The notes under the pieces were generated by a model. The model was not told where the DNA came from. It was given only the letters and a program-made list of their open reading frames with translations, and made no database searches. From assembly GCA_965215185.1 (NCBI GenBank), contig OZ244034.1:341863-405862 (forward strand): a stretch of 64,000 bases of DNA. Reading direction: 5' to 3'. A program made the position numbers and the translations under genes. The stretch is from Acidimicrobiia bacterium. Lineage in GTDB: Bacteria > Actinomycetota > Acidimicrobiia > Spongiisociales > ZC4RG35. Each line of letters begins with the position of its first letter. The first letter of the stretch is position 1. This document shows positions 14,129-45,793 of the stretch, one piece after another.

Positions 14129-14233
14129 GGGGTTGAATCACCAGGCACGTGCTTCTCGCTGGATCCAATTTCATTAGGCCAGTCCAAGCTCATTTGCCAT
14201 TGTTGTATACCAAGCACCCAGAATGGTGTATTC

Positions 14234-14274
14234 GTGCTCCAAGGTGAACGCCCTGCGGGTTCACCTTGGAGCAC
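14234..14274. promoter_or_regulatory. perfect 16-bp inverted repeat with a 9-nt spacer, between the amidase 3' end and the PTE gene 5' end
   Basis: 'gtgctccaaggtgaac gccctgcgg gttcaccttggagcac'. It could be the amidase terminator hairpin and/or an operator for the PTE gene. Confidence 0.4.
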
Positions 14275-14342
14275 TGTATCGAGCAGCCTGTTTCTGTGAA
14301 TGGACCTGTCGCTCTGTTGAGATATCATGCCATCGACTTCGT

Positions 14343-15923: not shown

Positions 15924-16025
15924 CCGACTCCTTTACAGGCGAGCTCGATAGCTAGCCGTCTTTCCGATCTTATGCTATTCACTTGTGCAACGCTGGCATG
16001 CATTTCATTATCCTTACAGCACGAA

Positions 16026-18834: not shown

Positions 18835-18880
18835 TGCTCTTGGCCGAATTCAGGCTCAACGGGTTCTGAAACTGATAGCT

Positions 18881-19849: not shown

Positions 19850-20034
19850 GCTGATAACTTAATCGTTTCCTCAAGACTGCCACAGAACGTGGAGATCTGG
19901 TTTAGCTGAGAGGACCCCGGTTCATCAAGTGCCCGCTGGGGCTGAACTGGAACCACCTGCACCCTCTTTCATCGGACGATTGCCACCATGCTCCGGTCTC
20001 CTGAGCAACTGTGGATGACCGCTCTCGCATGGGA

Positions 20035-20066
20035 TGGGGCCGAGACCCCATCCCATGCGATTACGA
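20035..20066. other. 13-bp-arm GC-rich stem-loop in the SBP-permease intergenic region of the peptide ABC operon
   Basis: 'gcatgggatgggg ccgaga ccccatcccatgc'. The position fits an intra-operon mRNA-stabilising or attenuating hairpin downstream of the SBP gene. Confidence 0.35.
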
Positions 20067-20085
20067 GACAGACTTGAGTCAACTA

Positions 20086-21813
20086 TCAACGGTCAAGCCA
20101 CACAATGGAGTAGTCCACAACCCAGTCCCCGGTTCGAATGAAGCCATTGACATCCGCCGCCATCGCGAGAGGGAAAGTATCTGACACGATGGGGGCATGG
20201 AAGGCCAGTTCGTGACCTCTACGAGCGGCTGCTTCGATGAACTCACTGGCTTCTTCTTGACTTGCAGCTTCATTGGCAGCTATCAAGAGCGAGTCATATT
20301 CTCCATCAATCAGCCCTCCCGAGTTGATACCTGCAGACGGTGACGTGGACTCATACAGCCAGTAGTCGGAGTTGTCCCCCCACGATATCTGGTTCATATC
20401 GACGTCATCCGGCATACCTGTGTACCACCGGCCAACGTACGTATTCCATTCGTAAGTACGAAGCTCCAGATCTATTCCGATTTCGGCCAGGTCTCGCTGA
20501 ATCCATTCAGCCATCTGTACAGGCAAGATCTGCCCGGATCCCGATGTCGACGTCTCAAACACCGCGTCAAACCCACCCTCATAGCCTGCTTCGGCAAGGA
20601 GCTCGCGCGCTCGCTCTGGGTCGTACTCATACCCCGCCCAATCTGGTACAGGGTTGAATGTCGCCGACGTAGACGAGCAGAAGCAGATAGCCGCCTCAAC
20701 TGTACCGACAAGCAGTTCCGCCGCCATGCCATCTCTGTCGATCGCCAGATTGACGGCTTGTCGAACTCTCGGATCGTCAAAGGGTGGCCGCCTGTGCTGG
20801 AATTCTATATACCAAAGATGCGGAGTCGGGCCCGATGCAATCTTGAAACCGTCGTCTTCAAGCTCAAGTATCTGATCCGGAGGCACGACACGGATCATGT
20901 CGACTTCGCCGGCCCTCAGGGCGTTGACGCGACCAGACTCATCTTCAATCGGTCGGAATATCAGTTCATCCACGTAGGGATGGGGAGTCCTCCAATAGTC
21001 CCGGTTTGCCTCCAGAGTCAAATGCTGTCCTCTTACCCACTCGACGAACTTGAAGGGACCGGTGCCAATGGGATGATCCGCGACCTCTTCGCCATACTCA
21101 ATAACAGCTGCGGGGCTAATCATCCATGGATGACCCAGACCTGTTGTGGTGGCGAGCTTCTCAATGAAGAACCCAAAGGGTGCTGACAGGACGAACTGAA
21201 CCGTGAATTCATCAACGACTTCAACAGCCTCGAGATTCTGGAATACTGTCGCGGCAAGCCCTGACAGTCCTTCTCCGATGTAATGATCGAAGCTTGGATC
21301 CCACACCCTGCGCACATTGAACTCGACAGCTCCCGCATCAAAGGGCGTCCCATCATGGAAGGTCACACCCTCGCGCAGTGAGAATGTGTGGATCAAGCCA
21401 TCCGGACTCGATTCCCACTCGGTGGCTAGCCGTGGCACGATCTCGGGCGGGCTGCCATCGTTTGGAACGGTGTAATCGGCAGTAATGAGCTTCTCAAAGA
21501 TCTGCTCGTTGACTTCATGCGTCTGTCCTCCCGAACTCCGATGTGGATCGAGAGTGCTGATCGTTGCTTCCAGCGCTACTATGAGAGTCCCTCCCTGCTG
21601 AGCCTCTGAATCGGCGCTTGTCTCAGCGGGCGCCGTCGTCTCAGGGGGCGCCGTCGTCTCAGGGGGCGCCGTCGTCTCAGGGGGTGCCGTCGTCTCAGCG
21701 GGCGCCGTCGTCTCAGCAGCAGCATCTGCCGCTTCGTCCCCGTCGTCGCCGCAGGCCGCAGCCAGCAACGCCAAGACAGCCATAAGGGCAATGGCTACTT
21801 TGAATTTCTTCAT
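20086..21813 (-). CDS. ABC transporter substrate-binding lipoprotein, family 5 (DppA/OppA-like), with a low-complexity ETTAPP linker
   Basis: 575 aa with a signal peptide and lipobox 'LLAAC', then '(A/P)ETTAP' x5, then an SBP_bac_5-type body. Confidence 0.85.
   Translation of the reverse strand: MKKFKVAIALMAVLALLAAACGDDGDEAADAAAETTAPAETTAPPETTAPPETTAPPETTAPAETSADSEAQQGGTLIVALEATISTLDPHRSSGGQTHEVNEQIFEKLITADYTVPNDGSPPEIVPRLATEWESSPDGLIHTFSLREGVTFHDGTPFDAGAVEFNVRRVWDPSFDHYIGEGLSGLAATVFQNLEAVEVVDEFTVQFVLSAPFGFFIEKLATTTGLGHPWMISPAAVIEYGEEVADHPIGTGPFKFVEWVRGQHLTLEANRDYWRTPHPYVDELIFRPIEDESGRVNALRAGEVDMIRVVPPDQILELEDDGFKIASGPTPHLWYIEFQHRRPPFDDPRVRQAVNLAIDRDGMAAELLVGTVEAAICFCSSTSATFNPVPDWAGYEYDPERARELLAEAGYEGGFDAVFETSTSGSGQILPVQMAEWIQRDLAEIGIDLELRTYEWNTYVGRWYTGMPDDVDMNQISWGDNSDYWLYESTSPSAGINSGGLIDGEYDSLLIAANEAASQEEASEFIEAAARRGHELAFHAPIVSDTFPLAMAADVNGFIRTGDWVVDYSIVWLDR
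21613..21716. repeat. tandem 18-bp repeat (about 5 units of 'gcgccgtcgtctcagggg') encoding the ETTAPP linker
   Basis: Read directly in the sequence. Confidence 0.6.
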
Positions 21814-21924
21814 TGCTTATTCCTTCCTGCCGGGTGCTCGTCGGGCCAACGGCACTCGACTAAAAAAAGTGACCTGGGTCGGCAGATCAGCCGACCTCCA
21901 GTTCTAAATATATAGCTGGGTCTA

Positions 21925-22330
21925 TCAATTCTTCCCTCGCAGGGGCATTATTTCTTGGGCACATCTCAAAAATTGAGTGTTGTTGGGGTTGGTGAATCCG
22001 TGAGCGACGCGTCGTGGGACCTGGAGGAGGTTGTTGATCCCTTCGATGGGTCCGTTCGATGCTCGTCTGCTGGTGTGGTAGGCCAAGATCTCTTCTCCCC
22101 ACGCGATGATCGTGTCCACGATGTCGCGGTATTCGCGGATCTGGCCTGTGGCGTAGAGATCAGCGAACCGTCCCAGAGCCTCGTTGGCCTGATCGAGGTC
22201 GCCGGCTTCGTAGAGTTGGTAGAGTTCCTGGAGCGCGTCCCACGCGGTACGGAGACGTGGATGAGCGTCGACCAGCCGGTCGAGGTGCGCCTGGTGGGCG
22301 TCGCTGAGATGATCCAGTACACTACATCAG
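21925..22330 (-). mobile_element. ISL3-family transposase 3'-end fragment (C-terminal ~130 codons only), left copy
   Basis: Encodes '...DTIIAWGEEILAYHTSRRASNGPIEGINNLLQV..RRVAHGFTNPNN', the conserved ISL3 C-terminal motif. About 355 bp are near-identical in inverse orientation to 26657-26992. Confidence 0.6.
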
Positions 22331-22368
22331 TTACAATCGTCTGGAGAGTCAAAGTGATTGATCTTGAT

Positions 22369-24099
22369 ATGAGGCTAGACCCGATTCAGTTTGAGGTGAT
22401 TCGAAATGCTCTGCTTGAGATCACCGAAGAAATGAGCGCCACCGTTAGGCGTAGCGCGTATTCCACGAACATCAAGACGAGAGCCGATTTCTCATGTGCC
22501 CTGTATGACGAGCACCTTCGCGTCGTCGCTCAGTCGTTCGCCCAGCCGACCCACCTTGGATCGGCCGTCGAAGTGGTGCCCAACGCCATCCGCGAATACG
22601 GTGCTGACAACATTGGACCTGGCGATAGCATCGTCCTGAATCACCCTTACATCGGTGGAGGACACCTAAACGATGTGACCCTCATCTCTCCGGTGTGGTA
22701 CAAGAATCGTCGACTCGGATATGTAGCCAACATCGCCCATCACGTTGACGTCGGCGGGGGAGCTCCATCCAGTATCGGAGCATTTACGGAGGTATTCCAG
22801 GAGGGGGTGATCATCCCGCCTCTGAAATTGGTGCGTAGCGGAGAGGTCGTTGACGAGATCTTCCAACTCATTCTGTCTCAGATACGCTCGAAGCGGGAGT
22901 TCGCGGGCGACTTTCGTGCCCAGATCGCCTCAAATCAAGCTGGAATCCATAGGCTAACGGCATTACTAGACCGTTTCGGCCCTGAAGTAGTCGAGACTGG
23001 GATCGAACAGATTCTGTCCTACACGGAACAGCGTATTCGAGTCGAGGTGGGAGCTCTTCCGCGTGGCGTTTTCACGGCAGAGGGCTACGTGGATACTGAC
23101 GGGTACACGGCTGATCCTGTTCGACTTGCTGTCAAGGTTGTCGTCGATGACGACGGTGTGCTATTTGATTTCGATGGCTCGGATCGTCAGCGGAAAGCGC
23201 CAGTGAACGCTACGTTCGCGATGACGTTCGCGACGTGTGCGTACGTCCTCAAGGCATTGACCGATCCCGATGTGCCAGTGAATGCGGGATTCTACGGCGC
23301 AGTACGCATAAACGCACCCGCAGGGTCCGTCGTGAATTGCGTGTATCCTGCTCCCGTAGTGGGGGGATGGGAAACTCAGATGAGACTCACAGACATCATT
23401 TTCAAGGCGTTGTCCCCCGCACTGCCTGAGATGATTCCCGCAGGTACAGAGGGGATGATCTGCCACGCTGGTTTTGGCGGAGAGGACCCTCGTACTGGCG
23501 AGTATTACTGCTTCCTTGAGACGCTCGCTGGCGGTTATGGGGGTAGGGCTAAGAGTGACGGTCCCGACGCAGTCCAATGCCATGGGAAGAACACTGAGAA
23601 CGCTCCAATCGAGGAGACCGAATCGAGTTACCCCGTCAGGATCGTTCGTTATGAGTTGGTAGAGAACTCAGAAGGTGCGGGAAGACACAGGGGGGGACTT
23701 GGGCTACGACGTGACTATCTTTTTCCCGATCATGAAGTGTCCTTCACAGTCCTCGCTGACCGGGATCGCTGGGGCCCACACGGGCTGTTCGGAGGACTTC
23801 CGGGAACTAAGGCTGAGTACGTACTCGTCTCGAAAGGCGAGACCAGCAAGGTCGGCGCTAAGTCAACCTTGCAGTTGAAGCCAGGGGACCTCGTCAGTTA
23901 CCGAACCTGTGGCGGTGGGGGCTTTGGCCCGCCAAGTGAGAGGGATCCGGTCAGTGTTCTTGCCGACGTAAGAGATGGAAAAGTCAGTGCCGAGAGAGCA
24001 CGAGAGGTCTACCGCGTGATGATTGATCCCAAGGATCTGGTCATAGACGAAGAGCAAACCAGTGTTCTTAGGGGTTCCAATAGCGTGGATAAGCAGTGA
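22369..24099 (+). CDS. hyuB: hydantoinase B / oxoprolinase / caprolactamase beta-type subunit (HyuB family)
   Basis: 'MRLDPIQFEVIRNALLEITEEMSATVRRSAYSTNIKTRADFSCALYD' is the canonical HyuB N-terminus. The ORF track extends to 21955 only because the antisense of the IS fragment is open. Confidence 0.85.
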   Translation: MRLDPIQFEVIRNALLEITEEMSATVRRSAYSTNIKTRADFSCALYDEHLRVVAQSFAQPTHLGSAVEVVPNAIREYGADNIGPGDSIVLNHPYIGGGHLNDVTLISPVWYKNRRLGYVANIAHHVDVGGGAPSSIGAFTEVFQEGVIIPPLKLVRSGEVVDEIFQLILSQIRSKREFAGDFRAQIASNQAGIHRLTALLDRFGPEVVETGIEQILSYTEQRIRVEVGALPRGVFTAEGYVDTDGYTADPVRLAVKVVVDDDGVLFDFDGSDRQRKAPVNATFAMTFATCAYVLKALTDPDVPVNAGFYGAVRINAPAGSVVNCVYPAPVVGGWETQMRLTDIIFKALSPALPEMIPAGTEGMICHAGFGGEDPRTGEYYCFLETLAGGYGGRAKSDGPDAVQCHGKNTENAPIEETESSYPVRIVRYELVENSEGAGRHRGGLGLRRDYLFPDHEVSFTVLADRDRWGPHGLFGGLPGTKAEYVLVSKGETSKVGAKSTLQLKPGDLVSYRTCGGGGFGPPSERDPVSVLADVRDGKVSAERAREVYRVMIDPKDLVIDEEQTSVLRGSNSVDKQ

Positions 24100-24121
24100 A
24101 GACGCGCCCTTCACGACCTGA

Positions 24122-26239
24122 TTGAATGGGAGCAAGGCGAGCATGACAAGCCGGATTGGAATTGACATTGGTGGCACGTTCACAGATGCAATTGTGATTA
24201 ACGAAGCAACTGGCGAGATTTTCATCGACAAGGTCACTTCCACTCCTCGTGATCCATCGATTGGTTTTCTACAGGCGACCAATCGGATATTGGAACGCAA
24301 TGAGCTGGACCCAAGCTCTATAGCATATCTAGTTCATGGTACGACTGTTGCTACCAATGCAATTATTGAGAATAGTCTGGCGAAATCTGCGTTTATCACG
24401 ACGGATGGATTCAGGGATATGCTTGAGATTGGACGGCAGAATCGCCCCGTACTGTATGACCTTGGGTTTGAGAAACTTCGACCGCTGGTACCGCGCTATT
24501 TGTGTTTTGAGATACGAGAGCGGCTCGATGCCTCGGGCAATGTTGTCGTTCCAATTCATGTGGAAGATGTCAAATCAGTGGCCCGAAAGATAAAGGAGGA
24601 GGAAGTTGAGTCAATCGCTGTGTGTCTTCTGCATGCACATATCAATCCAGTTCATGAGGTAACCGTTGGCGAAATACTACGGTCCATGCTTCCAGAGACG
24701 GCCGTTTCGCTTTCGAGCGAGGTGGCACCAGAATTTCGGGAGTATTTCCGCGCCAGCACCACAACGATCAATGCTGGAATTCGCCCAATCGTTTCGCGAT
24801 ATCTTGAGAGTATCGAGAGTCGCCTTCGAGCTGAAAGCATGACAGGTGAGCTTCTTGTGATGCAAAGCAATGGGGGACTGCAGACGTTCGAGGTAGCGGC
24901 CGAGAAGCCAGTATTCATGGTGGAGTCGGGGCCGGCCGCCGGAGTCATGGCGGCGACCTACCTCGGAGAATCGCTCGGGTTCAGCAACATGATCTCGCTG
25001 GATATGGGCGGGACCACGGCAAAAGTCGGCCTGATTCTGGATGGCGTACCGAACGTGACAAAGGATTACGAGGTGGGCGCAACCGCCCGACCAGGAATGG
25101 GGAGTGGTCGCGGTTCGGGCTATCCGATTCGTACTCCTGTCATTGACCTGGTTGAGATCGGAGCCGGAGGTGGATCAATCGCTTGGGTGGATTCAGGCGG
25201 TGCACTAAGGGTGGGGCCAAGAAGTGCTGGCGCTGATCCGGGCCCAGCGTGCTACGGCTGGGGCGGCCTGGAGCCGACGGTGACTGATGCCAACCTCGTC
25301 CTCGGACGGCTGAACCCCGAGTACTTCCTCGGCGGCGAGATAAAGCTCGACGTCGAGAGGGCTTCGGAGGCGATCGAAGGATTGGCATCCCAGTTAGGCA
25401 TGGATCTAATCGATGCAGCTTACGGAATCTTGGAGATTGCCAATGCCGCAATGGTGAATGCCCTGAGGTTGATCTCCATACAACGTGGATATGACCCGCG
25501 CGAATTCGCTCTTGTCGCCTTCGGTGGAGCCGGTCCTTTGCACAGTGGAAGAATCGCCATCGAACTCGGATTCTCTCACACCATCGTGCCGCTTAGCCCT
25601 GGCATCTTCTCGGCATTGGGACTTCTCGTGACTGATCTGAAGCACGACTTCTCGAGAACGGTTCTGCAGAACGTCGAAAGACTTGATCTGACGATCATCG
25701 AAGGGCTTTTTCAAGAGCTGGAAAAAGAGGGCCGTGACCTACTTGGGCGTGAAGGCGTCAAGGAGGAGGATGTTCAAGTTCGACGTTACGCTGAAATGCG
25801 CTACGTCGGTCAGAGCTATGAGCTCTCCCTCGACCTTCCAGATGGCGTTCTCACTCATAGCGACTTGGATCAGATCCTCGACCAGTTCGCCAAAGAGCAT
25901 GATCGGGTCTACGGGTTCAGCGTCCCAGGTGAACCCGTAGAGATCGTCAACATACGTTTGAGTACCCTCGGCGACATTCGCAAGCCTAGACTGAGAGAAA
26001 TCGGGAACAGTGGAACTGGGTTGGAATCTGCACACAAGGGAGCCCGATCTGTCTATTTCGACGAGAGCGGCGGATACATTGAGTGCCCCATATTCGACCG
26101 TTACAAGCTTGCTCAGGGCATTTCACTGATCGGTCCAGCCATAATCGAAGAACCGGATTCTACGACGGTTGTGCATCCCGGCTACAGCGTGAACATCGAT
26201 CAATATGGAAACCTGTTGTTGACCTCGGATGACGGATAG
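24122..26239 (+). CDS. hyuA: hydantoinase A / N-methylhydantoinase A-type ATP-dependent subunit (HyuA family)
   Basis: The N-terminal 'IGIDIGGTFTDAIV' (ASKHA fold) and the internal 'ISLDMGGTTAKVGLI' second sugar-kinase-like motif are both present. 705 aa. Confidence 0.85.
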   Translation: MNGSKASMTSRIGIDIGGTFTDAIVINEATGEIFIDKVTSTPRDPSIGFLQATNRILERNELDPSSIAYLVHGTTVATNAIIENSLAKSAFITTDGFRDMLEIGRQNRPVLYDLGFEKLRPLVPRYLCFEIRERLDASGNVVVPIHVEDVKSVARKIKEEEVESIAVCLLHAHINPVHEVTVGEILRSMLPETAVSLSSEVAPEFREYFRASTTTINAGIRPIVSRYLESIESRLRAESMTGELLVMQSNGGLQTFEVAAEKPVFMVESGPAAGVMAATYLGESLGFSNMISLDMGGTTAKVGLILDGVPNVTKDYEVGATARPGMGSGRGSGYPIRTPVIDLVEIGAGGGSIAWVDSGGALRVGPRSAGADPGPACYGWGGLEPTVTDANLVLGRLNPEYFLGGEIKLDVERASEAIEGLASQLGMDLIDAAYGILEIANAAMVNALRLISIQRGYDPREFALVAFGGAGPLHSGRIAIELGFSHTIVPLSPGIFSALGLLVTDLKHDFSRTVLQNVERLDLTIIEGLFQELEKEGRDLLGREGVKEEDVQVRRYAEMRYVGQSYELSLDLPDGVLTHSDLDQILDQFAKEHDRVYGFSVPGEPVEIVNIRLSTLGDIRKPRLREIGNSGTGLESAHKGARSVYFDESGGYIECPIFDRYKLAQGISLIGPAIIEEPDSTTVVHPGYSVNIDQYGNLLLTSDDG

Positions 26240-26439
26240 CCGGAGAGGCTCGTCACGCCGAACAGAGAGCTGACTGCTTCGCCAAGGTTGCTCTAACGCA
26301 AATCACGCGCACGCCGGAAACCAGTTGGCCCTGCGCGGAAATGTGGGGTTGGGTGGGTTGAAATCCTTGGATTGGGGGTGAGGCCTCGCTGGAATCGGTA
26401 AAGTACCAACTCGCCGATTCGAGGAGGCCTCGATGTCTG

Positions 26440-27050
26440 ATGTTATGTCTGTTCGTCTGCACTTGTCGGGTTCGCGTTAGGAGCGATCGCGCAGTATCTA
26501 CCGGACGGTCTTCACGTACTCGATCGTTTTCACGTGGCGCGCTGGTTCACCGAAGGCCTCACCCTGGTACGACGCGAGATACAACGCCGCCCCCTGATCA
26601 GCGTCCGCCGACCTACGAACCGGATCTGTTCCGGGCCCGCTTCACGCTCCTGCGGCGCGCGGATCATCTCAGCGACGCCCACCAGGCGCACCTCGACCGG
26701 CTGGTCGACGCTCATCCACGTCTCCGTACCGCGTGGGACGCGCTCCAGGAACTCTACCAACTCTACGAAGCCGGCGACCTCGATCAGGCCAACGAGGCTC
26801 TGGGACGGTTCGCTGATCTCTACGCCACAGGCCAGATCCGCGAATACCGCGACATCGTGGACACGATCATCGCGTGGGGAGAAGAGATCTTGGCCTACCA
26901 CACCAGCAGACGAGCATCGAACGGACCCATCGAAGGGATCAACAACCTCCTCCAAGTCCTATGACGCGTCGCTCACGGGTTCACCAACCCCAACAACTAC
27001 GCAGCCCGAGCGATCCTCGTAACATGACCTCAACACCGAGCACAGCATGC
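26440..27050 (+). mobile_element. ISL3-family transposase 3' fragment (longer remnant), right copy, inverted relative to 21925-22330
   Basis: Encodes '...LYATGQIREYRDIVDTIIAWGEEILAYHTSRRASNGPIEGINNLLQVL' and then continues in another frame. The N-terminal two-thirds of the transposase are absent. Confidence 0.6.
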
Positions 27051-27351
27051 CAAAACCCACGATTTCGCGCAGCCTCATCCGTTCCACTACTGGCTAGAGA
27101 CCCTCTGAGTCATGATGGCTGGCAGGACTGAGTGGTATCACGACACTCACATAGAATGTAGCTCAGACCGGCTACGCACACCCGCATCCCAAGCAGAGGA
27201 GAAACAGCAACACCGTGTCGACGAATCAGACCGGGCGAGCCTACGAGGAAGTGAAGGATCCGTTGCGGCTGGCAGGCGGAATATCGATCAGCATTCCAAG
27301 GCTGAGAACGTGGATTCGGGATCGGAGTAGAAACCTGTTGCTGTCCGGTGC

Positions 27352-27690
27352 CTAATCAGTAGTTATCTTAACTCCGAGGAGTGGAGCGTGCTGCTGACAA
27401 CCGTACACGTCCCGATCCCTGGGGCTACCAGAAACCGCTGGTCGTACGATTGTGATCTTGAGGCCTCGAGCTGAATCGTGCCATGCAAGGTTGATTACAT
27501 CGCTCTTGTCGATTCCGTAGCACCGCGAAACCAAAGAATCGGTAATGATGCCCGACATCTTCACTTGACTAAACGCCTCGGCGCTATCAAAAAATACATC
27601 AAAAGTCAGCAAATACGGCCCAGCATTCTTGCTTCTGAGGATGCTTGCGACCTCGCCCAGGGTCGTGTTCATATCAGCTATAGCTCCCAA
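27352..27690 (-). CDS. DUF4387-domain protein (partner of AtuA-like DUF1446 proteins)
   Basis: 112 aa, translationally overlapping the upstream DUF1446 gene. This pairing is a known conserved two-gene module. Confidence 0.55.
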   Translation of the reverse strand: MGAIADMNTTLGEVASILRSKNAGPYLLTFDVFFDSAEAFSQVKMSGIITDSLVSRCYGIDKSDVINLAWHDSARGLKITIVRPAVSGSPRDRDVYGCQQHAPLLGVKITTD

Positions 27691-29038
27691 CAGCTACTTC
27701 AAAACATTCATCTGGCGAGTCGAGAGTCATCAAGTGATGCACGCTGAACTCATAGACCGGCCCGCACGATAGGGTTCCCGGCGCAAGAGGGTATGCCAAG
27801 TTAGCCGCAGTTGCCTTGATACCAGGATACTTGAAGTGATCGATCGATGACCGGACGAAGGCAACGATGGTATCTGCCAGCGTTTGCGACTCAGCGACAA
27901 CCCTGATTAGGAGGCCTACTTCGTGAGCGGGGATTGGGGTGGGTTCTAGATGTCCCATCACTCCATCTCGTCCATACACTACAAAATCGAGATCAAAGTC
28001 GTCACTAAACCGCTGGGCGGTAGCCTCGTGGACGGCGTCGACGATCAAATCAATATTGGATATGAAATACGGATCTCGTGCGCCAGCAATAGTGATCGAA
28101 CGATATCCACGCTGGGTGGCACCCTCGATGAGCACTTCATACCGATCACTCTCGCACCATTCACTCCCGGAGATGTTGACCCACCCATCCTGGGCTTGCT
28201 CGAATTCACTGTTTCCCATCCAGACGTGCCCACCGGGCAAGTACAATCTGGCTGGGTCTGATTCCTCATAAAAGCTTTGGGCGGCGACAGAACGGGGTGA
28301 GCAGACGATGGAGTGTTTGGGCGAGCCGACCGTGAAATGGTCTTCCCTGATTATTCCCGTCATGGACTCGGCGGCACCATGGTCTGCCTCAGAACACATG
28401 GCACCACATTCGAGAATCTGACCCATGTGCCAAGCTAGGCCCTTGGGATAGCCTTCCCTAATCGCCAAAGCAGCAAAAATTGCGGCATCGCAGCTTCGGC
28501 CAGCGATCACGAGATCTGGTTCGAGATCGAGTGCCTCCACTATTTGTTCGACACCCATTAGGCCGACTATGTGAGTCGTTTCTTCGATCGTTTGGACGGA
28601 AAGTTGCTCCTCTGGCCCCAGACTTCTTATCTTGCCGGCACGGAGTTTTCGCTTGATGTAATCCTTGTGCAGCTCTGAACGAACGGTTGCGATGCGGAGG
28701 CTCCATCCACACTCACGAGCAATTTCGTGGGCGATGTCAAGCATCCATTCGATCCCAAAGTCAGACCCGGACGTTCCAGCGGAGCCGATAACCACGGGAA
28801 TGCGCCGTGAGCGGCTGGCAGTCAGAATCCTGCCTAGGTCGTCGGCCGTTGTGGATCGTGCTGCCTCCACAATGCCCCCACCCAGATTGTGTGGACCAGA
28901 GTCTGTTGAGCCTGCATCAATTCCTATGACGTGCGGGTTCAGAGCTAAGTTCATTTCGAAGCTGTCATCAGGGAATCCGAAACCCAGCATGCCCGTAGGG
29001 ACTAGAGTCCGTAGCTCTCGACTTGCCCTGTGGACCAT
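27674..29038 (-). CDS. acyclic-terpene-utilisation AtuA-like protein (DUF1446)
   Basis: 454 aa, about the right length. It has an N-terminal 'LGFGFP' region and is partnered with DUF4387 immediately downstream. Confidence 0.6.
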   Translation of the reverse strand: MVHRASRELRTLVPTGMLGFGFPDDSFEMNLALNPHVIGIDAGSTDSGPHNLGGGIVEAARSTTADDLGRILTASRSRRIPVVIGSAGTSGSDFGIEWMLDIAHEIARECGWSLRIATVRSELHKDYIKRKLRAGKIRSLGPEEQLSVQTIEETTHIVGLMGVEQIVEALDLEPDLVIAGRSCDAAIFAALAIREGYPKGLAWHMGQILECGAMCSEADHGAAESMTGIIREDHFTVGSPKHSIVCSPRSVAAQSFYEESDPARLYLPGGHVWMGNSEFEQAQDGWVNISGSEWCESDRYEVLIEGATQRGYRSITIAGARDPYFISNIDLIVDAVHEATAQRFSDDFDLDFVVYGRDGVMGHLEPTPIPAHEVGLLIRVVAESQTLADTIVAFVRSSIDHFKYPGIKATAANLAYPLAPGTLSCGPVYEFSVHHLMTLDSPDECFEVAVGSYS

Positions 29039-29096
29039 TTCTCTCCTCTGCCGATCCGCACTCCGTCTTTGGTGTGCCAGTTACTATAGCGGCTCT

Positions 29097-29853
29097 TCGA
29101 TGCTCCTATGGTTGTCAAATCGATGCTTCTATGTTTGCCAAATCGAGTTTTTGGGGTCGGGGTTTAGTTTGGCCGGTTTAGGGGGTTTGGGGTGTTGGTG
29201 GTGGGTTTTGGAGGAGTCGATGCTCCTATGTTTTGCAAATCGGGTTCTGGTGGGTGAGCCAGTGGTGGTATCGGGTGGCGAGTTGATGGTTGTGGTATAG
29301 GCCTCGTTCGAGTTGTGAGAGGCGTGTTGGCTGGGTGTGGAGGGCTGTGGCGGCGTGAGTGAGCGATGTTTGGGTGTTTTGGCGTAGGCAGCGGAGATGG
29401 GCGCCGTTGGGTGTTTGGGGCGGGTTGGTCAACAGTTGGTAGACCTGGCGGGCAATGTAGATGCTCCTATGGTTGTCAAATCGAGTTTTGGTGGGGTGTG
29501 AGGGCGGTGAGCCATTGGTGGTATTGGGTGGCGAGTTGGTGGTTGTGGTATAGGCCTCGTTCGAGTTGTGAGATGCGGTTGGGGTGGGTTTGTAGGGCGG
29601 TGGCGGCGTGGGTGAGGGTTGTTAGCGCGTTTTTGCGTAGACAGCGAAGATGGGCGCCGTTGGGGGTTTCGGGTGGGTTGGTGAGCAGGTGGTAGATCTC
29701 CCGGGCGATGTGGCGTTTTAGGCAGCGGATGATCTCCCGGCGGTTTTTGCCTTCTGTTTGTCTTTTTTGGGCGTAGGCGATGGTGGTCTGGTCGTAGCGC
29801 ATGCGGGTGATGGCGATCCGCCACAGGGATGCTTCTATGATTTCCAAATCGAG
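29097..29853. repeat. five dispersed copies of a ~26-nt motif GATGCT(C/T)CTATG(G/T/A)TT(G/T)(T/C)CAAATCG(A/G)G that mark the junctions of truncated IS110 3'-end copies
   Basis: Copies at 29099-29123, 29124-29150, 29219-29246, 29460-29486 and 29828-29853, each followed by G/T-rich sequence. Confidence 0.6.
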
Positions 29854-29900
29854 TTTTTGGGGTCGGGGTGACCAACAGGGCAGCGGCTTGTTTGGCGGGT

Positions 29901-31021
29901 TTAGGGGGTTCGGGGTGTTGGTGGTGGGTTTTCGAGTAGTCGGTAGAGGTGGCGGGCGATGTACCGTTTGAGGCAGCGGCGGGTTTCGCGGGTGGTTTTT
30001 CCTTGGGCGGTGCGTTTGGCGATGTAGGCCCGGGTTTTGGGACAGTGTCGGGTGCGGGTGATGGCGATGGTGTGGAGGGCTCGGTTTAGTTGGCGGTCAC
30101 CGCGTCGGTTTAGTCGGTGGCGGGTTTGTTGTCCTGAGGAGGCTTGGAGGGGGGCTACGCCGGCCAGGCGAGCGAAGGCGGCTTCGTTGCGGTATCGGCC
30201 TGGGTGGGACCAGGCGATGTAGATTTGTGCGGCGGTGATGGGGCCTATCCCGGGTTGGTCGAGCAGCTGGGGAGCGACGGTTTCGACCAGTTTGGCGATG
30301 GGTGTTTGCAGTTCTGCTATTTCGGTGGTGAGCGTGCGGATACGCCGGGCTACAGATCGCATGGCCATTTTGGTGGCGGTGTGTTCGTTTCGGGAACCAG
30401 GGGTTGGTTGACTCGGTCGGAACTTGTGGCACTTGGTGATCAAAGCGGTGGTGGTGAGACTTCGGAGTTGGTCTCTGAGATCGACCGGCGCGGTTACTAC
30501 CAGGGCTTTGAGCGCGTTATGGCTGCTATCCGGGCGGTTTGGGCGCCTTGGCGGGTGGTTTCCAGTACTCGGAGGGCTTCTCGGTCTCCCCGAGCGCGGG
30601 GTACCGAAGGCCGGCGTCCCAGCGCCTGGCGGGCGGCTCGTCGAGCGTCCAGCGCGTCGGTTTTGGCGCCGTCGCGGGTCGGGTAGGGATGGTTGAACTC
30701 TATTACCCACTCGCCAGCAGCGCCAAGATAGGTGGCGGCCCCTGTTCCGTAGCTGTCGGCGCCTTCCACCGCCCACGCCCGTTCTGCGGATGTGTGCTGG
30801 TTTGCCCACTCCAACATCTGGGCATATCCGCCGCTGGTTGTCCCAAACCGTGCGGACGCCAACTCTGCGGTGGTGGAAGCGTCCACCACCGACGCGGTTA
30901 CCCAATCACGATCAGGATCGATCCCGATCACATGGTCTACCATTGTGGCCAACATAAGAAAACCTTCTCTTTCTTGTGAAACTGGGCTGTTCGCCTCACG
31001 AGGCGCAAACCGTGACGGCAA
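29901..31021 (-). CDS. IS110-family transposase, copy c (complete C-terminus; DEDD N-domain and C-domain in different frames, so frameshifted or pseudogene)
   Basis: ORF 30497-31021 = 'MLATMVDHVIGIDPDRDWVTASVVD...' (N-domain). ORF 29901-30905 carries '...LKALVVTAPVDLRDQLR...AARLAGVAPLQASSGQQTRHRLNRRGDRQLNRALHTIAITR...' in another frame. Confidence 0.75.
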
Positions 31022-40730: not shown

Positions 40731-40770
40731 GGTTGGGTTTGGTCGGCGGGAGCGCCGACCAAACCCAACC
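40731..40770 (-). terminator. intrinsic terminator hairpin (18-bp perfect stem, GGAG loop) immediately downstream of the minus-strand OpuAC gene
   Basis: 'ggttgggtttggtcggcg ggag cgccgaccaaacccaacc', 13 nt after the stop of the 40783-41712 gene. The minus-strand tail 'actgcttcttgg' is only moderately U-rich. Confidence 0.55.
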
Positions 40771-40782
40771 TGATAGTGAAAG

Positions 40783-41712
40783 TTATCCTCGTGCTGTTGC
40801 CAGCCAGCTGTCGACTTTGTCGCGGTTGGCGGCGATCCAGGCTTGGGCGTCAGCTTCGATGTCAGCCTCGGTGTAAGCTCCGGCGGCCATTTTGGTGTTT
40901 TGAGCTGCGATGTCACTCAACGGAATTGCCATCACCTCGAGGAGACGGCGGATATCCGGGTTGTCATCCAGGAAGTCGGTGTTGGCCACCGCCCGGATGT
41001 CATTCACGGAGGACTGCAGCCATACCGCATTCTCGCCTGCCACCAAAACGGTGTTTGTCCAGTTGGGCGTCCAAGCGTAGAACAGCGCCGGTTCACCAGC
41101 GGCTACCGTCGCCACAACGCCTCGGGCCAAGTCGTCGTAATCACCAGAGACCTGCTCGACGTTGGCGCCCCAACTGAGATCGGCGATCTGTTGGTTGATG
41201 GAGGTTTCGCATCCCCATCCGACGTTGCATCCGAACAGGTCGGCCTTGCCGTCACCGTCGGTGTCGAAGAGGCCGGCGTTGGCGGCCACGCCATCCATCG
41301 AGGTGATTCCCATTCTGTCAGCCGTGGCCTTGTCGACCATCAAGCCGTCGGTAGCCCCATCATCCACCTGCCAGCCGACAGGTTCGATGGGCAACTCGAC
41401 CGCCTGGCCGGTTACATTTTCTCCTTCCAAGTATATGTCGTGGATGGGGAACCAGCCATTGGCCCACAGGTCGTACTGGCCGGTGGCCAGGGCGGGATAG
41501 AACGAGTAGGGGCTCAGTTCGGCGGCGGCCGGATCGGTCACCTCGTGTCCAAGCTCCTCGATTAGCGCGGCGTAGATGGCGGCCTGCATGTAGCCCGAAC
41601 TCCAGTTGGCCCGAGCGATCTTCACCGGCCCGGCAACTTCGTCGGTGGCGCAAGCCGAAAGCATCAGCACGAAAGCCGCAAGAGCGGCCGTCAATACGTT
41701 CGTTTTCTTCAT
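40783..41712 (-). CDS. glycine betaine/choline-type substrate-binding lipoprotein (OpuAC/ProX family)
   Basis: Signal peptide and lipobox 'LMLSAC'; 'VKIARANWSSGYMQAAIYAALIEELGHEV' and 'DLWANGWFP' are typical OpuAC motifs. Its start overlaps the stop of the BCCT gene by 4 bp. Confidence 0.8.
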   Translation of the reverse strand: MKKTNVLTAALAAFVLMLSACATDEVAGPVKIARANWSSGYMQAAIYAALIEELGHEVTDPAAAELSPYSFYPALATGQYDLWANGWFPIHDIYLEGENVTGQAVELPIEPVGWQVDDGATDGLMVDKATADRMGITSMDGVAANAGLFDTDGDGKADLFGCNVGWGCETSINQQIADLSWGANVEQVSGDYDDLARGVVATVAAGEPALFYAWTPNWTNTVLVAGENAVWLQSSVNDIRAVANTDFLDDNPDIRRLLEVMAIPLSDIAAQNTKMAAGAYTEADIEADAQAWIAANRDKVDSWLATARG

Positions 41713-43481
41713 GACTCTTCACCTCCTACTCCCAGTCTCTCGATCAAGCCGCTGTGCTGGGATTGGAAGATGGCTGCGTCGTAGTGACTCTCTAGGAGGT
41801 CGAGCTCTTCATCGAAGGCCTTCTTGAGGCTATACAACATGATCAAAAGCACGAACAGGAATGGCAGTCCGGTAGCCACAGCCGCCGTTTGGAGCGCCGA
41901 CAGGCCACCTCCTATCAGCAACACGACCGCTACCAGGCCTTCCATCAACGCCCAGGCCACTCTCTGGGGCTTGGGCGAGTCGAGTTTTCCTCCTGAGGTG
42001 AGGTGGTCCACCACCAGAGATCCCGAGTCCGAAGAGGTAACGAAGAACGAAACCAACAGTAAAACGCCGACTATCGAGATGAAGTTGGTCCATGGGAAGG
42101 CCTCCAACATCACGAACAGGGCGGTAGCAACGTTTTCGTTGACCGCAGTAGCAACGTCCAGTTCGCCACGCATTTGCAGATCCATGGCCGCTCCGCCGAA
42201 GACCGCAAACCACAAGAAGCACAGTAGGCAGGGAAGGACCATCACACCGAGGATCATTTCCCGCACCGAGCGCCCCTTAGAGATTCGAGCGATAAACATA
42301 CCGACGAAGGGAGACCAAGAGATCCACCATCCCCAGTAGAAGATGGTCCACCACTGTTGCCATTGGGTATCGACCAAGGCGGCGTTCCAGAACGAAAACT
42401 CCGGGAGCACCTGGATGTAGACACCGATGCTTTCAACATACAGCGAGAGAATCAACAAAGTGGGACCCACCGCGAGCACAAAGACCAAGAACGCCCCGGC
42501 CAGCCACACGTTGATCTGGCTCAGCCTCTTGACCCCGGCGTCCAGGCCCGCCACAACCGAGATGGTTGCCAACCCGGTGATAACGGCGATAAGAACGATC
42601 TGAAAACCGGTGCCCGAAGGGAGACCGAAGAGCTTGTTCAACCCCGCGGCCGCCTGTCCGGCGCCGAACCCCAGTGAGGTGGCAAGACCGAAAAGGGTGG
42701 CCACCACGGTGAGGACGTCGATCGCGTTGCCCCATCCACCGTAGATCCTCTTACCGAGAATCGGATAGAAGACCGAACGGAAAGTCAGTGGCAAGCCTCG
42801 GTTGTAGGCAAAGAACCCCAAAGCCAGTGCTACCAGTCCATACAGCGCCCATCCATGGACCCCCCAATGGAGGTAGGAGGTCGCCAGTGCGGCTCTGGCC
42901 GCGCCAGATGACAAGGGTTCCACGTCGAACAAGGGAGGCGGCGCTGTGAGGTGGAAGATTGGCTCTGCCACACCCCAGAACATCAACCCGATGCCAATAC
43001 CGGCGGAGATCAACATTGCGTACCAAGCGCCCGAGGAAAACTCCGGAAGAGCTCTTGGCCCACCTAATCGAATCTTGCCGTACCTGCCAAACGCAAAGTA
43101 GAGCGCGGCACCGATGAAGATGTTGAATGAGATGATGTACAGCCAACCCACCTTCTCGTTGATGAAGTTGAGAATGGTGCCGAAGACACCACTGGCCTGA
43201 TCTGGGTAGAACAAAGTGGCCAGGATGAAGACCAACATGAATCCGGCAGCGGAGAACGTCACCTGCGGATGAATGTCGAATCCATACTTGACGATGTTCC
43301 TGTCACCGGGCTCGCGATCCGCAACATCTGGATAGAAATCGATGTCGGGGTCGATTTGGAGGCCTTCGAACTGGGCTCGATTACGGATCGCCGCCTCGCG
43401 ACGGCTTTCCTCTTTTTCCTCCCAGTCTTCGTAGGCTTCCGCAACCGTGGTGAGATCAAGATCTTGGTCTTTGTCAGCCAT
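41709..43481 (-). CDS. BCCT-family betaine/carnitine/choline transporter
   Basis: 590 aa with ~12 TM helices. The BCCT signature region 'WTIFYWGWWISWSPFVGMFIARIS' is diagnostic. Confidence 0.85.
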   Translation of the reverse strand: MADKDQDLDLTTVAEAYEDWEEKEESRREAAIRNRAQFEGLQIDPDIDFYPDVADREPGDRNIVKYGFDIHPQVTFSAAGFMLVFILATLFYPDQASGVFGTILNFINEKVGWLYIISFNIFIGAALYFAFGRYGKIRLGGPRALPEFSSGAWYAMLISAGIGIGLMFWGVAEPIFHLTAPPPLFDVEPLSSGAARAALATSYLHWGVHGWALYGLVALALGFFAYNRGLPLTFRSVFYPILGKRIYGGWGNAIDVLTVVATLFGLATSLGFGAGQAAAGLNKLFGLPSGTGFQIVLIAVITGLATISVVAGLDAGVKRLSQINVWLAGAFLVFVLAVGPTLLILSLYVESIGVYIQVLPEFSFWNAALVDTQWQQWWTIFYWGWWISWSPFVGMFIARISKGRSVREMILGVMVLPCLLCFLWFAVFGGAAMDLQMRGELDVATAVNENVATALFVMLEAFPWTNFISIVGVLLLVSFFVTSSDSGSLVVDHLTSGGKLDSPKPQRVAWALMEGLVAVVLLIGGGLSALQTAAVATGLPFLFVLLIMLYSLKKAFDEELDLLESHYDAAIFQSQHSGLIERLGVGGEES

Positions 43482-43663
43482 CGCGGCTCCCTTCTAATCG
43501 CAAATCCATCATCGGCGTCTCCTTTCAGTAGCCCAACAACGGCTGACCGCACTGTTCAGGGGCGGCTTGAGAAAGACCATAGCCAATGACGGCCCGCCGA
43601 ATTGCAAAAACCGCACAAAGTTTCTAACCTTCTCCGGTTTTCTTTTTCCTCCCCCTTCCCATA

Positions 43664-45793
43664 TTGGTTGCTAATCTTCGGTCTACCCCTTACCTCTGGA
43701 TGCCGTCCATGCGCCGAATCGTCTTCACAGCCTTGGGAACACTGACGGTCTCTTGGGCACTGCTCCTGGGGGCTGGCATGGCGATAGGCCAGCCCGAGGA
43801 GGACTCATCCGCAGAACCCACCGTGCGGATAGCGCGCGCCACATGGGACACCGGTTGGTTTCAAGCCGAGGTTTACCGGCTGCTCATCCAACGGCTTGGC
43901 TATCGGGTGGAGGGCCCGTTCACCATGGACAATGACGAGTTCTATGAGGCTTTGGCAGCCGGCGAGGTGGATCTTTGGGCCAACGGGTGGTTCCCAACCC
44001 ACGACTCTCACATTCGGGTGGGAGTGGTGGAAACGGTGGGTACTCAGGTCGATGACGGCGCGCTGCAGGGATACTTTGTCGATAAGGCCACTGCCGAGAC
44101 TCATGGCATCACCAGCCTGGGTGACCTGGCCGCTCCGGAGATTGCCGCCCTGTTCGATCGGGACGCCGACGGCTTGGCCGATCTGATCGGGTGTGAAGTT
44201 TCCTGGGGATGTGCGGCGATCATCGAGCATCACCTTGAGGCATATGGGTTGAAGGAGACCGTCGAACAGGTGCAAGGCGCCTACTCGCCTCTGATAACCG
44301 AGACCATAGACCGCTACCACGCCGGTCAACCGGTCCTCTTCTATACCTGGACCCCTAACTGGACGGTGGGGGAGTTGGAGCCGGGTCGGGAGGTTATCTG
44401 GTTGGAGACGCCGTTCCCTTCCCTTCCCGCCGACCAGATCGCCTTCTTGGACCGGACGGCCATTGCCGGGATTCCCGGATGCGCCAATGATCCGTGTCAG
44501 GTGGGCTGGCCTCCCAATGACATCCGGGTGGTGGCCAACTCCGGTTTTCTGGAGAACAACCCTTCGATTCGGAGGCTGCTGGAACAAGTGGTCATTTCCC
44601 TCCACGACATCTCCGCCCAGAACGCGCTGATGGTTGCCGATGAGGGCGATCCTGAGGACATTCGCCGCCATGCTGAGGAGTGGGTGGCGGCCAATGAAGT
44701 AGTGGTTACTCGCTGGATCGAGACTGCCGACCCCAACGCGGTCGGTTTGCAAAACCTCCAAGGGGACGAGTCGGCGTCGGGAGGGACGTTGAGAGTGGCG
44801 GCGCGCGCCCTCCCGCCTTTCGTTATTTATGAGAATCGGGCGTACAACGGCTTTGAGGTGGAATTGGTGCGCCTTCTTGCTGCCCGGTTGGGCATGGAAG
44901 CCGAGATATATGCGGTGGACACTGTCGCCAAGCAAATTGACGACGTTAACCGCGGTGTAGCCCGAGTGGCGTTGGGAGGGGTGGCCATCACGGAGTCGCG
45001 CGAGCAGGTGGTGGACTTTTCTATGCCGGTTCTCGATACGGGTCTGACCATCTTGGCCCCCACTCACGCCTCACGCGGTCTCGGAGACCGGATCGGGACA
45101 TTCTTCACGGCCATCGTCTCCTCGGACCTGCCCTGGTTGCTAGTGCTCTTCGGGGTGGCAGTCCTGATCTCCGCCCATGTGATCTGGTGGTTGGAACGTA
45201 ACCACAACACCGATTTCGCCGTGCCCTACCGGCAGGGTATCTGGGACTCGTTCTATTGGTCGGTCGTGACCATGAGCACGGTCGGATATGGTGACAAGGT
45301 GGCTCGGGGAAGCATGGGGAGAGTATTCGCCCTAGTATGGATCGCCCTGGGGACGCTGGTGTTCGCCAGCTTCACCGCCTCGATAGCCTCCTCGCTGGCG
45401 GTCAACGAGTTGCGCAGTGAGATCTCCGGACCCCAGGACCTGCCTGGTCACCGAGTGGCGACGGTGACGCGCTCTGCCGGGGAGACCTATCTGTCCACCA
45501 TAGGGGTGGGTTCGGTTCCGGTGGATGATATTGAGCAAGCCTATGGTCTCTTGGCGGAGGGCGATGTTGATGCCATCGTGTTTGATGCTCCGGTTCTCCG
45601 TTTTCACGCCGCTCGGGAGGGGCAAGGTGAAGTGGCCACATTCGGGCCGGCGTTCGAGAAGGTGCAATACGGGCTGGCGGTCAGTGAGGATGACGCCGAG
45701 TTCCGAGAACGGCTCAATCTTGCTCTGTTGGATCTGATCGAAAGTGGCGTCTACGGACAACTCCATGACCGGTGGTTCGGCGCTTTGGGCTGA
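43664..45793 (+). CDS. GluR0-type ionotropic-glutamate-receptor-like ligand-gated K+ channel with an extra N-terminal OpuAC (betaine-binding-like) domain
   Basis: aa ~50-355 are paralogous to the adjacent OpuAC protein ('VRIARATWDTGWFQAEVYRLLIQRLGYRV', 'DLWANGWFP'). aa ~370-470 form SBP_bac_3 lobe 1. Next come M1 'LPWLLVLFGVAVLISAHVIWWL', pore helix + filter 'FYWSVVTMSTVGYGD' (TVGYGD = nt 45278-45295), and M2 'VFALVWIALGTLVFASFTASIASSLAV'. aa ~575-709 form SBP lobe 2. Confidence 0.75.
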   Translation: MVANLRSTPYLWMPSMRRIVFTALGTLTVSWALLLGAGMAIGQPEEDSSAEPTVRIARATWDTGWFQAEVYRLLIQRLGYRVEGPFTMDNDEFYEALAAGEVDLWANGWFPTHDSHIRVGVVETVGTQVDDGALQGYFVDKATAETHGITSLGDLAAPEIAALFDRDADGLADLIGCEVSWGCAAIIEHHLEAYGLKETVEQVQGAYSPLITETIDRYHAGQPVLFYTWTPNWTVGELEPGREVIWLETPFPSLPADQIAFLDRTAIAGIPGCANDPCQVGWPPNDIRVVANSGFLENNPSIRRLLEQVVISLHDISAQNALMVADEGDPEDIRRHAEEWVAANEVVVTRWIETADPNAVGLQNLQGDESASGGTLRVAARALPPFVIYENRAYNGFEVELVRLLAARLGMEAEIYAVDTVAKQIDDVNRGVARVALGGVAITESREQVVDFSMPVLDTGLTILAPTHASRGLGDRIGTFFTAIVSSDLPWLLVLFGVAVLISAHVIWWLERNHNTDFAVPYRQGIWDSFYWSVVTMSTVGYGDKVARGSMGRVFALVWIALGTLVFASFTASIASSLAVNELRSEISGPQDLPGHRVATVTRSAGETYLSTIGVGSVPVDDIEQAYGLLAEGDVDAIVFDAPVLRFHAAREGQGEVATFGPAFEKVQYGLAVSEDDAEFRERLNLALLDLIESGVYGQLHDRWFGALG

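Follow-up and report, generated by a model that had tools for sequence, protein, structure and literature searches.

The prokaryotic ionotropic glutamate receptors (iGluRs) closest to the protein described here are GluR0 of Synechocystis (slr1257) and its homologue in Nostoc punctiforme. Both have the layout S1-M1-P-M2-S2, in which the two lobes (S1 and S2) of a ligand-binding domain (LBD) flank a pore module of two helices (M1 and M2) and a pore segment (P); they carry a TVGYGD-type K+ filter and an SBP_bac_3-type LBD with the amino-acid-binding residues Thr, Arg and Asp, and have no M4 helix. GluR0, which has no domain before S1, reportedly conducts K+ when its LBD closes on an amino acid, a result said to go back to Chen and colleagues in 1999. 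The eukaryotic AMPA, kainate, NMDA and delta receptors place a further, distal clamshell before the LBD clamshell and the pore. This amino-terminal domain (ATD) is an LIVBP-like type I periplasmic binding protein (PBP), and in NMDA receptors it binds allosteric modulators. In this study, a 64,000-nt stretch of DNA from an Acidimicrobiia bacterium (hereafter the window; GenBank assembly GCA_965215185.1, contig OZ244034.1, positions 341,863 to 405,862) was found to encode a protein (43709..45793, plus strand) that has all of these GluR0 features and also carries a distal domain of about 300 aa with a linker before S1. The order of modules is that of the eukaryotic receptors, and the distal domain is predicted to have the ProX/OpuAC fold of glycine-betaine-binding proteins. 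We give a probability of roughly 0.55 to the reading that this is a ligand-gated K+ channel of the GluR0 type in which a second clamshell, one that binds betaine, sits at the position of the eukaryotic ATD and would modulate or co-gate the pore when occupied.

Parts of this design have counterparts in other membrane proteins. Two PBP-type modules in series are also present in GlnPQ (substrate-binding domains SBD1-SBD2, PDB 6h30), in OpuA with its fused SBD, and in BvgS (Venus flytrap domains VFT1-VFT2, PDB 4q0c). The outputs of these proteins are an ABC importer or a histidine kinase, whereas here the output is an ion channel. In an engineered GluR0-EhuB chimera, a compatible-solute (ectoine) substrate-binding protein (SBP) gates the GluR0 pore (Bernhard and Laube, bioRxiv 10.1101/2021.01.27.428399). 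In that chimera, however, the SBP replaces the LBD and an engineered dimer interface was needed, while in the window protein the additional domain precedes an intact LBD. No description of a ProX/OpuAC-GluR0 architecture was found in the literature, although most subscription journals lay outside the search and the absence is no proof. A 2010 survey of 100 prokaryotic iGluR-like proteins makes no mention of betaine, OpuAC or ProX, and no betaine-binding domain is among the InterPro domains listed in its consulted passages.

Domain organisation of the channel protein

The gene lies in an uninterrupted open reading frame (ORF) on the plus strand (43664..45793) that encodes 709 aa from a TTG codon in the ORF list, as stated in the first-pass annotation of the window. 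An in-frame ATG at 43709, which gives 694 aa, was chosen as the start when an ENA contig of 100% identity was independently annotated, and most homologues (690-694 aa) use the matching start. ATG 43709 is most likely the start of the gene, and residues are numbered from it unless marked as 709-aa numbering (from TTG 43664). Pfam profiles matched the protein in the order predicted by that annotation (709-aa numbering): OpuAC (PF04069) at 53-342 (E = 1.6e-50, 172.6 bits, profile positions 2-256 of 257), followed by SBP_bac_3 at 377-706 (a split match, E = 2.3e-25) and Lig_chan-Glu_bd at 375-467, with Lig_chan (PF00060) at 491-595 (E = 1.6e-12) and Ion_trans_2 at 498-578 (E = 2.7e-15) inside. Hydropathy analysis revealed three hydrophobic stretches only, namely the signal sequence and the two helices flanking the filter, in agreement with the earlier call of a signal peptide followed by M1-P-M2. 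The first stretch is a signal peptide or signal anchor (residues 1-27, MRRIVFTALGTLTVSWALLLGAGMAIG; 43709..43789), located by its hydropathy peak and by a modelled helix at 2-22 followed by a disordered stretch. The N-terminus bears no lipobox Cys, and a signal-peptide cleavage site may be present.

A fused reading frame of this kind could arise from a sequencing or assembly error that merged adjacent genes for a ProX SBP and a GluR0 channel. The probability of this is close to nil: the same continuous ORF, with the full architecture and TVGYGD, occurs in at least 239 distinct 90%-identity clusters, and it is intact in closed long-read chromosomes of metagenome-assembled genomes (MAGs) as well as in the cultured strains Halomicronema sp. 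CCY15110 and Phytoactinopolyspora halophila YIM 96934. The recurrence of the architecture over species-representative genomes of many groups refutes an artefact, and the concern that the N-terminal domain is a separate ORF opened by a sequencing error is excluded on the same grounds.

The distal domain (predicted ProX/OpuAC-type glycine-betaine-binding domain, residues 38-340; 43820..44728) was delimited by Pfam, NCBIfam, phmmer, Foldseek and conservation. The NCBIfam ProX equivalog NF008334 scored 327 bits on the channel protein (curated cut-off 215), so the earlier claim of a full OpuAC domain holds. The domain aligned over its full length with E. coli ProX (PDB 1r9l; phmmer E = 4e-61). A Foldseek search with an AlphaFold2 (AF2) model of the channel against betaine-bound ProX (1r9l) gave E = 9e-27, TMt 0.85 and an rmsd of 2.8 A over 309 columns at 36% identity; the domain is thus modelled with the bilobal fold of type II PBPs and can be superposed on ProX. 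Neither ANF_receptor nor Peripla_BP_6 matched the channel protein in Pfam, and 1r9l was its best structural match. The AF2 monomer model was built on a 91-sequence alignment (41-97% identity, including homologues 41-52% identical) and reached a pLDDT of 74.3, with most of the ProX domain at 80-94; it replaced an earlier, poor model (pLDDT 63.5) based on 56 sequences, none of them less than 71% identical. Its C-terminal half matched LBD-transmembrane chains of AMPA receptors (E about 1e-16), and the fold search also retrieved the tandem binding-domain proteins GlnPQ (SBD1-SBD2) and BvgS (VFT1-VFT2).

In E. coli ProX, glycine betaine is held by an aromatic cage of Trp65, Trp140 and Trp188 around the trimethylammonium group, with His69 and Gly141/Cys142 contacting the carboxylate. 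In the 1r9l alignment, the three cage residues correspond to Trp94 (43988-43990), Trp166 (44204-44206) and Trp214 (44348-44350) of the channel, His69 to His98, Gly141/Cys142 to Gly167/Cys168, and the Cys136-Cys142 disulfide pair to Cys162-Cys168. The conservation of these residues was counted over 66 full-length homologues from species-representative genomes. Trp94, Trp166 and the Cys162/Cys168 pair are kept in all 66, His98 in 61, and the position of Trp214 is occupied by Trp in 58 and by Phe in 8. A second Cys pair of the fused domain, Cys258/Cys263, is kept in 65 of the 66. It lies in a loop (residues 235-268; 44411-44512) that is missing from the paralogous lipoprotein encoded nearby, and that is shorter and has no Cys pair in E. 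coli ProX; this loop may provide a surface specific to the family, such as a docking site. Column conservation is 0.73 in the ProX domain, 0.66-0.70 in the LBD lobes and 0.76-0.77 in the pore. This similar conservation indicates that both clamshells and the K+ filter are under purifying selection.

These counts bear on whether the distal domain might serve only in tetramer assembly, stability or localisation, with its ligand site unused for signalling. Eukaryotic ATDs have assembly roles, and no ProX-LBD interface is defined in the monomer model. However, retention of the cage and His98 across distant phyla (58-66 of 66) would be unexpected if binding were dispensable, and two-module GluR0 channels (70 of the best 150 representatives in the search reported below) assemble with no such domain. 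We consider a purely structural role quite unlikely.

The distal domain is joined to the LBD by a linker of 19 aa (residues 341-359; 44729..44785) that has a pLDDT below 50 and varies in length among homologues; its columns are conserved at 0.28, compared with about 0.7 for the domains. Lobe S1 of the LBD follows (SBP_bac_3/Lig_chan-Glu_bd, residues 360-455, with Thr428 and Arg431; 44786..45073). A pre-M1 helix (458-471) leads into M1 (474-496; 45128..45196), which is supported by hydropathy, the AF2 model and the Lig_chan and Ion_trans_2 matches. The pore helix (507-523) and the filter TVGYGD (524-529) occupy 45227..45295, and the filter codons are at 45278-45295, precisely where the first-pass annotation had put them. 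M2 (535-568; 45311..45412) corresponds to a modelled helix at 535-570, so that, as expected, the filter is flanked by two transmembrane helices in the model. Lobe S2 (575-691, with Ser589 and Asp626; 45431..45781) aligns with residues 104-222 of 2pyy, the ligand-binding core of the Nostoc punctiforme GluR0 and the best match of the channel LBD (5e-36).

Several features tie this part of the protein to GluR0. The SBP_bac_3 match is interrupted by Lig_chan, and 2pyy aligns as two blocks around the pore; the LBD is split into S1 and S2 flanking the pore module, as in GluR0. The C-terminal 340 aa are 34-41% identical to two-module GluR0-like proteins, and TVGYGD is present in 239 of 239 full-length members from two large protein searches. 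Thr428, Arg431 and Asp626 match, in the alignment, the residues with which 2pyy and GlnH-type proteins bind the alpha-carboxylate and alpha-amino group of an amino acid; Thr428 (lobe 1) is kept in 64, Arg431 (lobe 1) in 60 and Asp626 (lobe 2) in 64 of the 66 homologues. The protein has every testable defining feature of the GluR0-type family. An A-x-F-T-A motif in M2 (SYTANLAAF-like) was dropped as a special feature; it is common in two-module GluR0-like proteins.

Hydropathy showed no hydrophobic segment after M2 that could form M4, and the protein stops 3 residues past S2. The absence of M4 places the C-terminus on the extracytoplasmic side. S1 and S2 should likewise be extracytoplasmic because both must build one clamshell, and the ProX domain should lie outside because it follows a signal peptide and has two conserved Cys pairs. 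Arg, Lys and His abound in the loops beside the pore helix, as would fit a cytoplasmic re-entrant loop like that of iGluRs. Sequence and structure comparison thus show a GluR0-type subunit with an intact amino-acid-type LBD, a two-helix pore with TVGYGD and an extra, intact betaine-type clamshell outside, both binding modules having their canonical ligand-contact residues. It is not a eukaryote-type three-layer iGluR: its distal fold is not LIVBP-like and M4 is absent, so the two are alike in layout only. The eukaryotic receptors also differ in having a cation-nonselective pore, where this protein has a K+ filter, and the present protein shows no sign of distal-domain dimers. The different distal fold indicates that the distal layer was acquired independently of the eukaryotic ATD.

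With two clamshells in one subunit, the ProX domain might be the principal or only agonist site of a betaine-gated channel, and the LBD a mechanical transducer, perhaps constitutively occupied or ligand-free. The ProX domain is conserved at least as well as the LBD, and in 6 of the 66 homologues another residue takes the place of the LBD Arg. On the other hand, the Thr/Arg/Asp triad of the LBD is kept in 60-64 of the 66, and the pore connects with the LBD lobes and not with the ProX domain, whose flexible linker would transmit force poorly. Gating by betaine alone is therefore an unlikely arrangement, and the two-site reading, with an amino acid at the LBD and betaine at the ProX domain, is preferred.

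Distribution of the family and its database names

Protein searches were performed to investigate the distribution of this architecture. A search of 5.8 billion clustered proteins returned at least 120 full-length matches that are 71-100% identical to the window protein. With a profile built from 14 diverse members, 880 clusters were matched at E <= 1e-30; the best 120 of these 880 clusters all show the Pfam set of the window protein and are 42-52% identical to it. Among 1.84 billion 50%-identity representatives, the best 150 matches comprised 11 ProX+GluR0 proteins, 70 two-module GluR0-like proteins and 44 ProX-only proteins; for nine of these representatives, the order of the domains was verified with Pfam. 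Among species-representative genomes, the complete architecture is found in Acidimicrobiia, including Candidatus Poriferisodalis and Spongiisociaceae MAGs, and also in Nitriliruptorales, Desulfobacterales, Chloroflexota, Holophagae, Kiritimatiellae and Sericytochromatia. It occurs in the cultured actinobacteria Phytoactinopolyspora halophila and P. endophytica, and in Cyanobacteria of the Leptolyngbyaceae and Xenococcaceae and the cultured Halomicronema sp. CCY15110. The fusion is kept over at least eight phylum-level groups, and the ProX-GluR0 design is widespread in marine and saline bacteria. The first-pass annotation, which knew of no description of the architecture, had left its rarity to a domain-architecture search; the protein is no rarity, and belongs to a large family across many phyla that already stands in public databases under ProX names.

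The source names given to the matches are variants of [quoted passage not shown] or [quoted passage not shown], and none of them refers to a channel. The database name ProX is misleading for the whole protein. The ProX domain has the tested features of ProX, namely the fold, the cage Trps, His69 and the Cys136-Cys142 pair, with the exception of the partnership with an ABC importer. E. coli ProX is the periplasmic binding protein of the ProU ABC importer, whereas the domain here is covalently joined to a pore; no ABC ATPase or BPD_transp_1 permease, including ProV and ProW, is encoded within 6 kb on either side of the channel gene. Domain-architecture databases, we are certain, list ProX-GluR0 proteins.

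In a neighbour-joining tree of ProX domains, the fused domains fall in one broad clade with a few stand-alone ProX proteins and fragments interleaved, and the tree is too crude to tell a single fusion followed by fissions from several fusions. As the earlier annotation had proposed, the fused domain is paralogous to the stand-alone OpuAC lipoprotein encoded nearby (42% identity, E = 1e-76). It is, however, 46-81% identical to fused domains of other genomes, always more than to the neighbouring lipoprotein, and so did not arise by a recent local fusion with the neighbouring gene.

The searches also returned more distant proteins. A divergent subclade shares the architecture but carries SGREGWG at the position of TVGYGD and may not be K+-selective; it is represented by two 50%-identity representatives, P0123 (1008 aa) and P0133 (689 aa). 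P0123 has two tandem ProX domains before the LBD, and the first cage Trp is lost in some ProX domains of the subclade. Related ProX/OpuAC domains (38-56% identity) are fused to WD40 propellers, caspase and PEGA domains, trypsin-like peptidases, SBP_bac_11 with VWA, or Peripla_BP_6 in further metagenomic representatives (P0138, P0144, P0153, P0155, P0197 and P0219). Reuse of the ProX fold as an accessory module seems to extend far outside ABC transport.

Association with betaine carrier genes

The channel gene is divergent from a BCCT-OpuAC operon, an arrangement already noted in the first-pass annotation and confirmed from the ORF coordinates. A gene for a betaine/choline/carnitine transporter (BCCT) occupies 41709..43481 on the minus strand (Pfam BCCT, 4e-186). 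It is followed on the same strand by a gene for a stand-alone OpuAC/ProX lipoprotein (40783..41712; Pfam OpuAC 3e-36, NCBIfam ProX 232 bits, lipobox LSAC in the translation). The start of the lipoprotein gene overlaps the BCCT stop by 4 nt (ATGA, 41709-41712), and the two genes are predicted to be translationally coupled; neither an ABC permease nor an ABC ATPase is encoded near them. A terminator-like hairpin with an 18-bp stem (40731..40770, minus strand), found by a pattern scan as a consensus match only, lies directly downstream of the lipoprotein gene and may close the transcription unit. The divergent intergenic region between the BCCT and channel genes (43482..43708, from the ORF coordinates) contained no Rfam regulatory RNA and no sigma-70 consensus promoter, a consensus that is uninformative for Actinomycetota.

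The neighbourhood was compared at loci for which 4 kb or more of flank was available on one side or both. A BCCT gene lies within the flank at 29 of 29 loci in Acidimicrobiia, at 7 of 10 in Desulfobacterales, and at the single loci of Nitriliruptorales, Leptofilum (Chloroflexota) and Kiritimatiellae (1/1 each). The gene order varies. The BCCT and channel genes are divergent in the window and convergent in other Acidimicrobiia; at locus L025 and in Desulfobacterales, BCCT, OpuAC and channel genes follow one another in the same direction; and on the Kiritimatiellae contig the channel start is overlapped by the BCCT stop. The BCCT linkage has thus been retained through gene rearrangement. A stand-alone OpuAC gene stands beside the BCCT gene at 28 of the 29 Acidimicrobiia loci, at the Nitriliruptorales locus and at all 7 BCCT-bearing Desulfobacterales loci, while Leptofilum, Kiritimatiellae and one Acidimicrobiia locus (L026) have a BCCT gene and no stand-alone OpuAC. 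The loci recorded with BCCT/OpuAC neighbours are the window, L001-L028, L029-L032, L036, L038, L042 and L043. The stand-alone OpuAC of Desulfobacterales belongs to a different subfamily (Pfam 211 bits), not detectably close to the Acidimicrobiia lipoprotein. The recurrent set of BCCT, OpuAC and channel genes argues for a functional link to the uptake of betaine in the lineages concerned.

This connection could take a form in which the pore is not controlled by betaine. The ProX domain would then be a membrane-anchored, high-affinity betaine trap, comparable to lipoprotein SBPs or to the fused SBDs of OpuA and GlnPQ, that hands betaine to the BCCT carrier or concentrates it at the membrane, with the channel serving as an anchor or having an independent function. 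The long, flexible and unconserved tether is typical of fused SBDs, Foldseek retrieved the GlnPQ tandem SBD (6h30), and the conserved pairing of BCCT with a stand-alone OpuAC hints that these particular BCCT carriers use binding proteins. No BCCT carrier is known to use or need a binding protein, however, and a dedicated stand-alone OpuAC is already encoded beside the BCCT gene. The fusion also persists at 10 of 10 cyanobacterial loci and in other lineages with no BCCT gene nearby, and a lipobox, as in the neighbouring gene, would be a far cheaper anchor. A capture role is thus improbable, and modulation of the pore by betaine remains the preferred reading. The BCCT-OpuAC pair itself may be a binding-protein-assisted BCCT system, or the OpuAC lipoprotein may be a separate sensor.

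Some further features of the locus and the window were recorded. The C-terminal tail of the neighbouring BCCT, inspected in translation for a BetP-like K+-sensing domain, is short and acidic and gives no support either way. Downstream of the channel stop at 45793 is an msrA-like gene, which starts at 45818 in the ORF list and about 60 nt downstream in the independent gene call. There is no hairpin comparable to 40731..40770 between the two genes, and they may be co-transcribed in this lineage. Elsewhere, a TPP riboswitch (8445-8556, plus strand; Rfam RF00059, 65 bits against a gathering score of 54.3) is the sole Rfam match in the window and is unrelated to the channel. The stretch from about 14000 to 30000 has a GC content of 0.505-0.57, compared with about 0.60 elsewhere in the window, and a sign change in GC skew; it may have been acquired horizontally.

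Proposed function and significance

The ProX-GluR0 family is real, widespread and mis-named, and from its sequence features we infer betaine control of a K+ pore. The subunits would form K+-selective tetramers gated by extracellular ligands. Closure of the LBD on an amino acid would open the pore, as in GluR0, and glycine betaine, proline betaine or a related quaternary ammonium osmolyte would bind the ProX domain and so modulate or co-gate the pore. Given the length and flexibility of the tether, docking of the closed, liganded ProX domain on the LBD layer would be the likeliest gating route, ahead of force applied via the linker. Both K+ flux and membrane potential would thereby respond to external osmolyte availability. 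This osmolyte-to-K+ reading is plausible, and it gains strength from the conserved betaine cage and from the BCCT linkage across phyla.

Several points weigh against it. The linker, which spans 19-35 residues in the family, is unconserved and predicted to be disordered, so that mechanical coupling as tight as that of the eukaryotic ATD layer is not apparent. Eukaryotic ATDs work as dimers, but the ProX of E. coli is a monomer. In the AF2 model, the geometry between domains is unreliable (pTM 0.47, monomer only), and the ProX-LBD contacts were left uninterpreted. No BCCT gene lies within the flank at the loci of Cyanobacteria (0/10), Phytoactinopolyspora (0/2), Holophagae (0/1) or Sericytochromatia (0/2); the BCCT link is therefore lineage-specific, and the channel is also kept where BCCT is absent. 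The ATD-like placement proposed in the first-pass annotation thus stands as far as the distal clamshell is concerned, while a rigid, ATD-like allosteric layer is not apparent with so long, variable and unconserved a tether.

In Acidimicrobiia and Desulfobacterales, the channel probably works with the Na+-coupled BCCT betaine carrier and the stand-alone OpuAC. Two ways in which it might do so can be envisaged. The channel may balance the depolarising influx of betaine and Na+ through the electrogenic carrier and clamp the membrane potential, K+ leaving the cell while betaine enters, as in the classical exchange of K+ for compatible solutes; a switch from KCl to betaine has been documented in Halorhodospira (PMC7042295). 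Alternatively, the channel may adjust or raise cytoplasmic K+ and so activate the BCCT carrier, as in BetP, full activation of which needs raised internal K+ according to a preprint (bioRxiv 10.1101/2022.06.02.493408). The sequence fixes neither the direction of K+ flow nor the sign of the betaine effect (activation or inhibition), since the former is set by the membrane potential relative to the K+ equilibrium potential. In its fullest form, the proposal is of a natural compatible-solute-controlled channel, in which betaine at the ProX domain and an amino acid at the LBD together set the open probability of the K+ pore and so couple osmolyte availability and BCCT-mediated betaine/Na+ uptake to K+ flux. 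This would be the first described prokaryotic three-layer iGluR; we put it forward tentatively, at slightly less than an even chance.

The family has consequences for annotation. Hundreds of entries named "ProX" or "ABC-type betaine substrate-binding protein" hide a K+ channel, and osmolyte transporters and ion channels alike will be counted wrongly when marine, sponge-associated and sediment metagenomes are surveyed for them. It also bears on the evolution of iGluRs, where the way in which the LBD-pore core gained a distal regulatory layer is an open topic and where this bacterial family uses a different binding-protein fold in that place. Its small, M4-less, homomeric subunits are suited to structural work, and cultured carriers such as Halomicronema sp. 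CCY15110 and Phytoactinopolyspora halophila make genetics possible.

In the osmotic response, cells accumulate K+ first and then exchange it for compatible solutes. In two lineages far apart, the gene for this K+ channel with its putative betaine sensor lies next to that for a BCCT carrier, which offers a testable, direct molecular link between the K+ phase and the compatible-solute phase. If the proposed control of the pore is true, a distal modulatory clamshell would have been added to the LBD-pore core independently in bacteria, with a ProX fold, and in eukaryotes, with an LIVBP fold.

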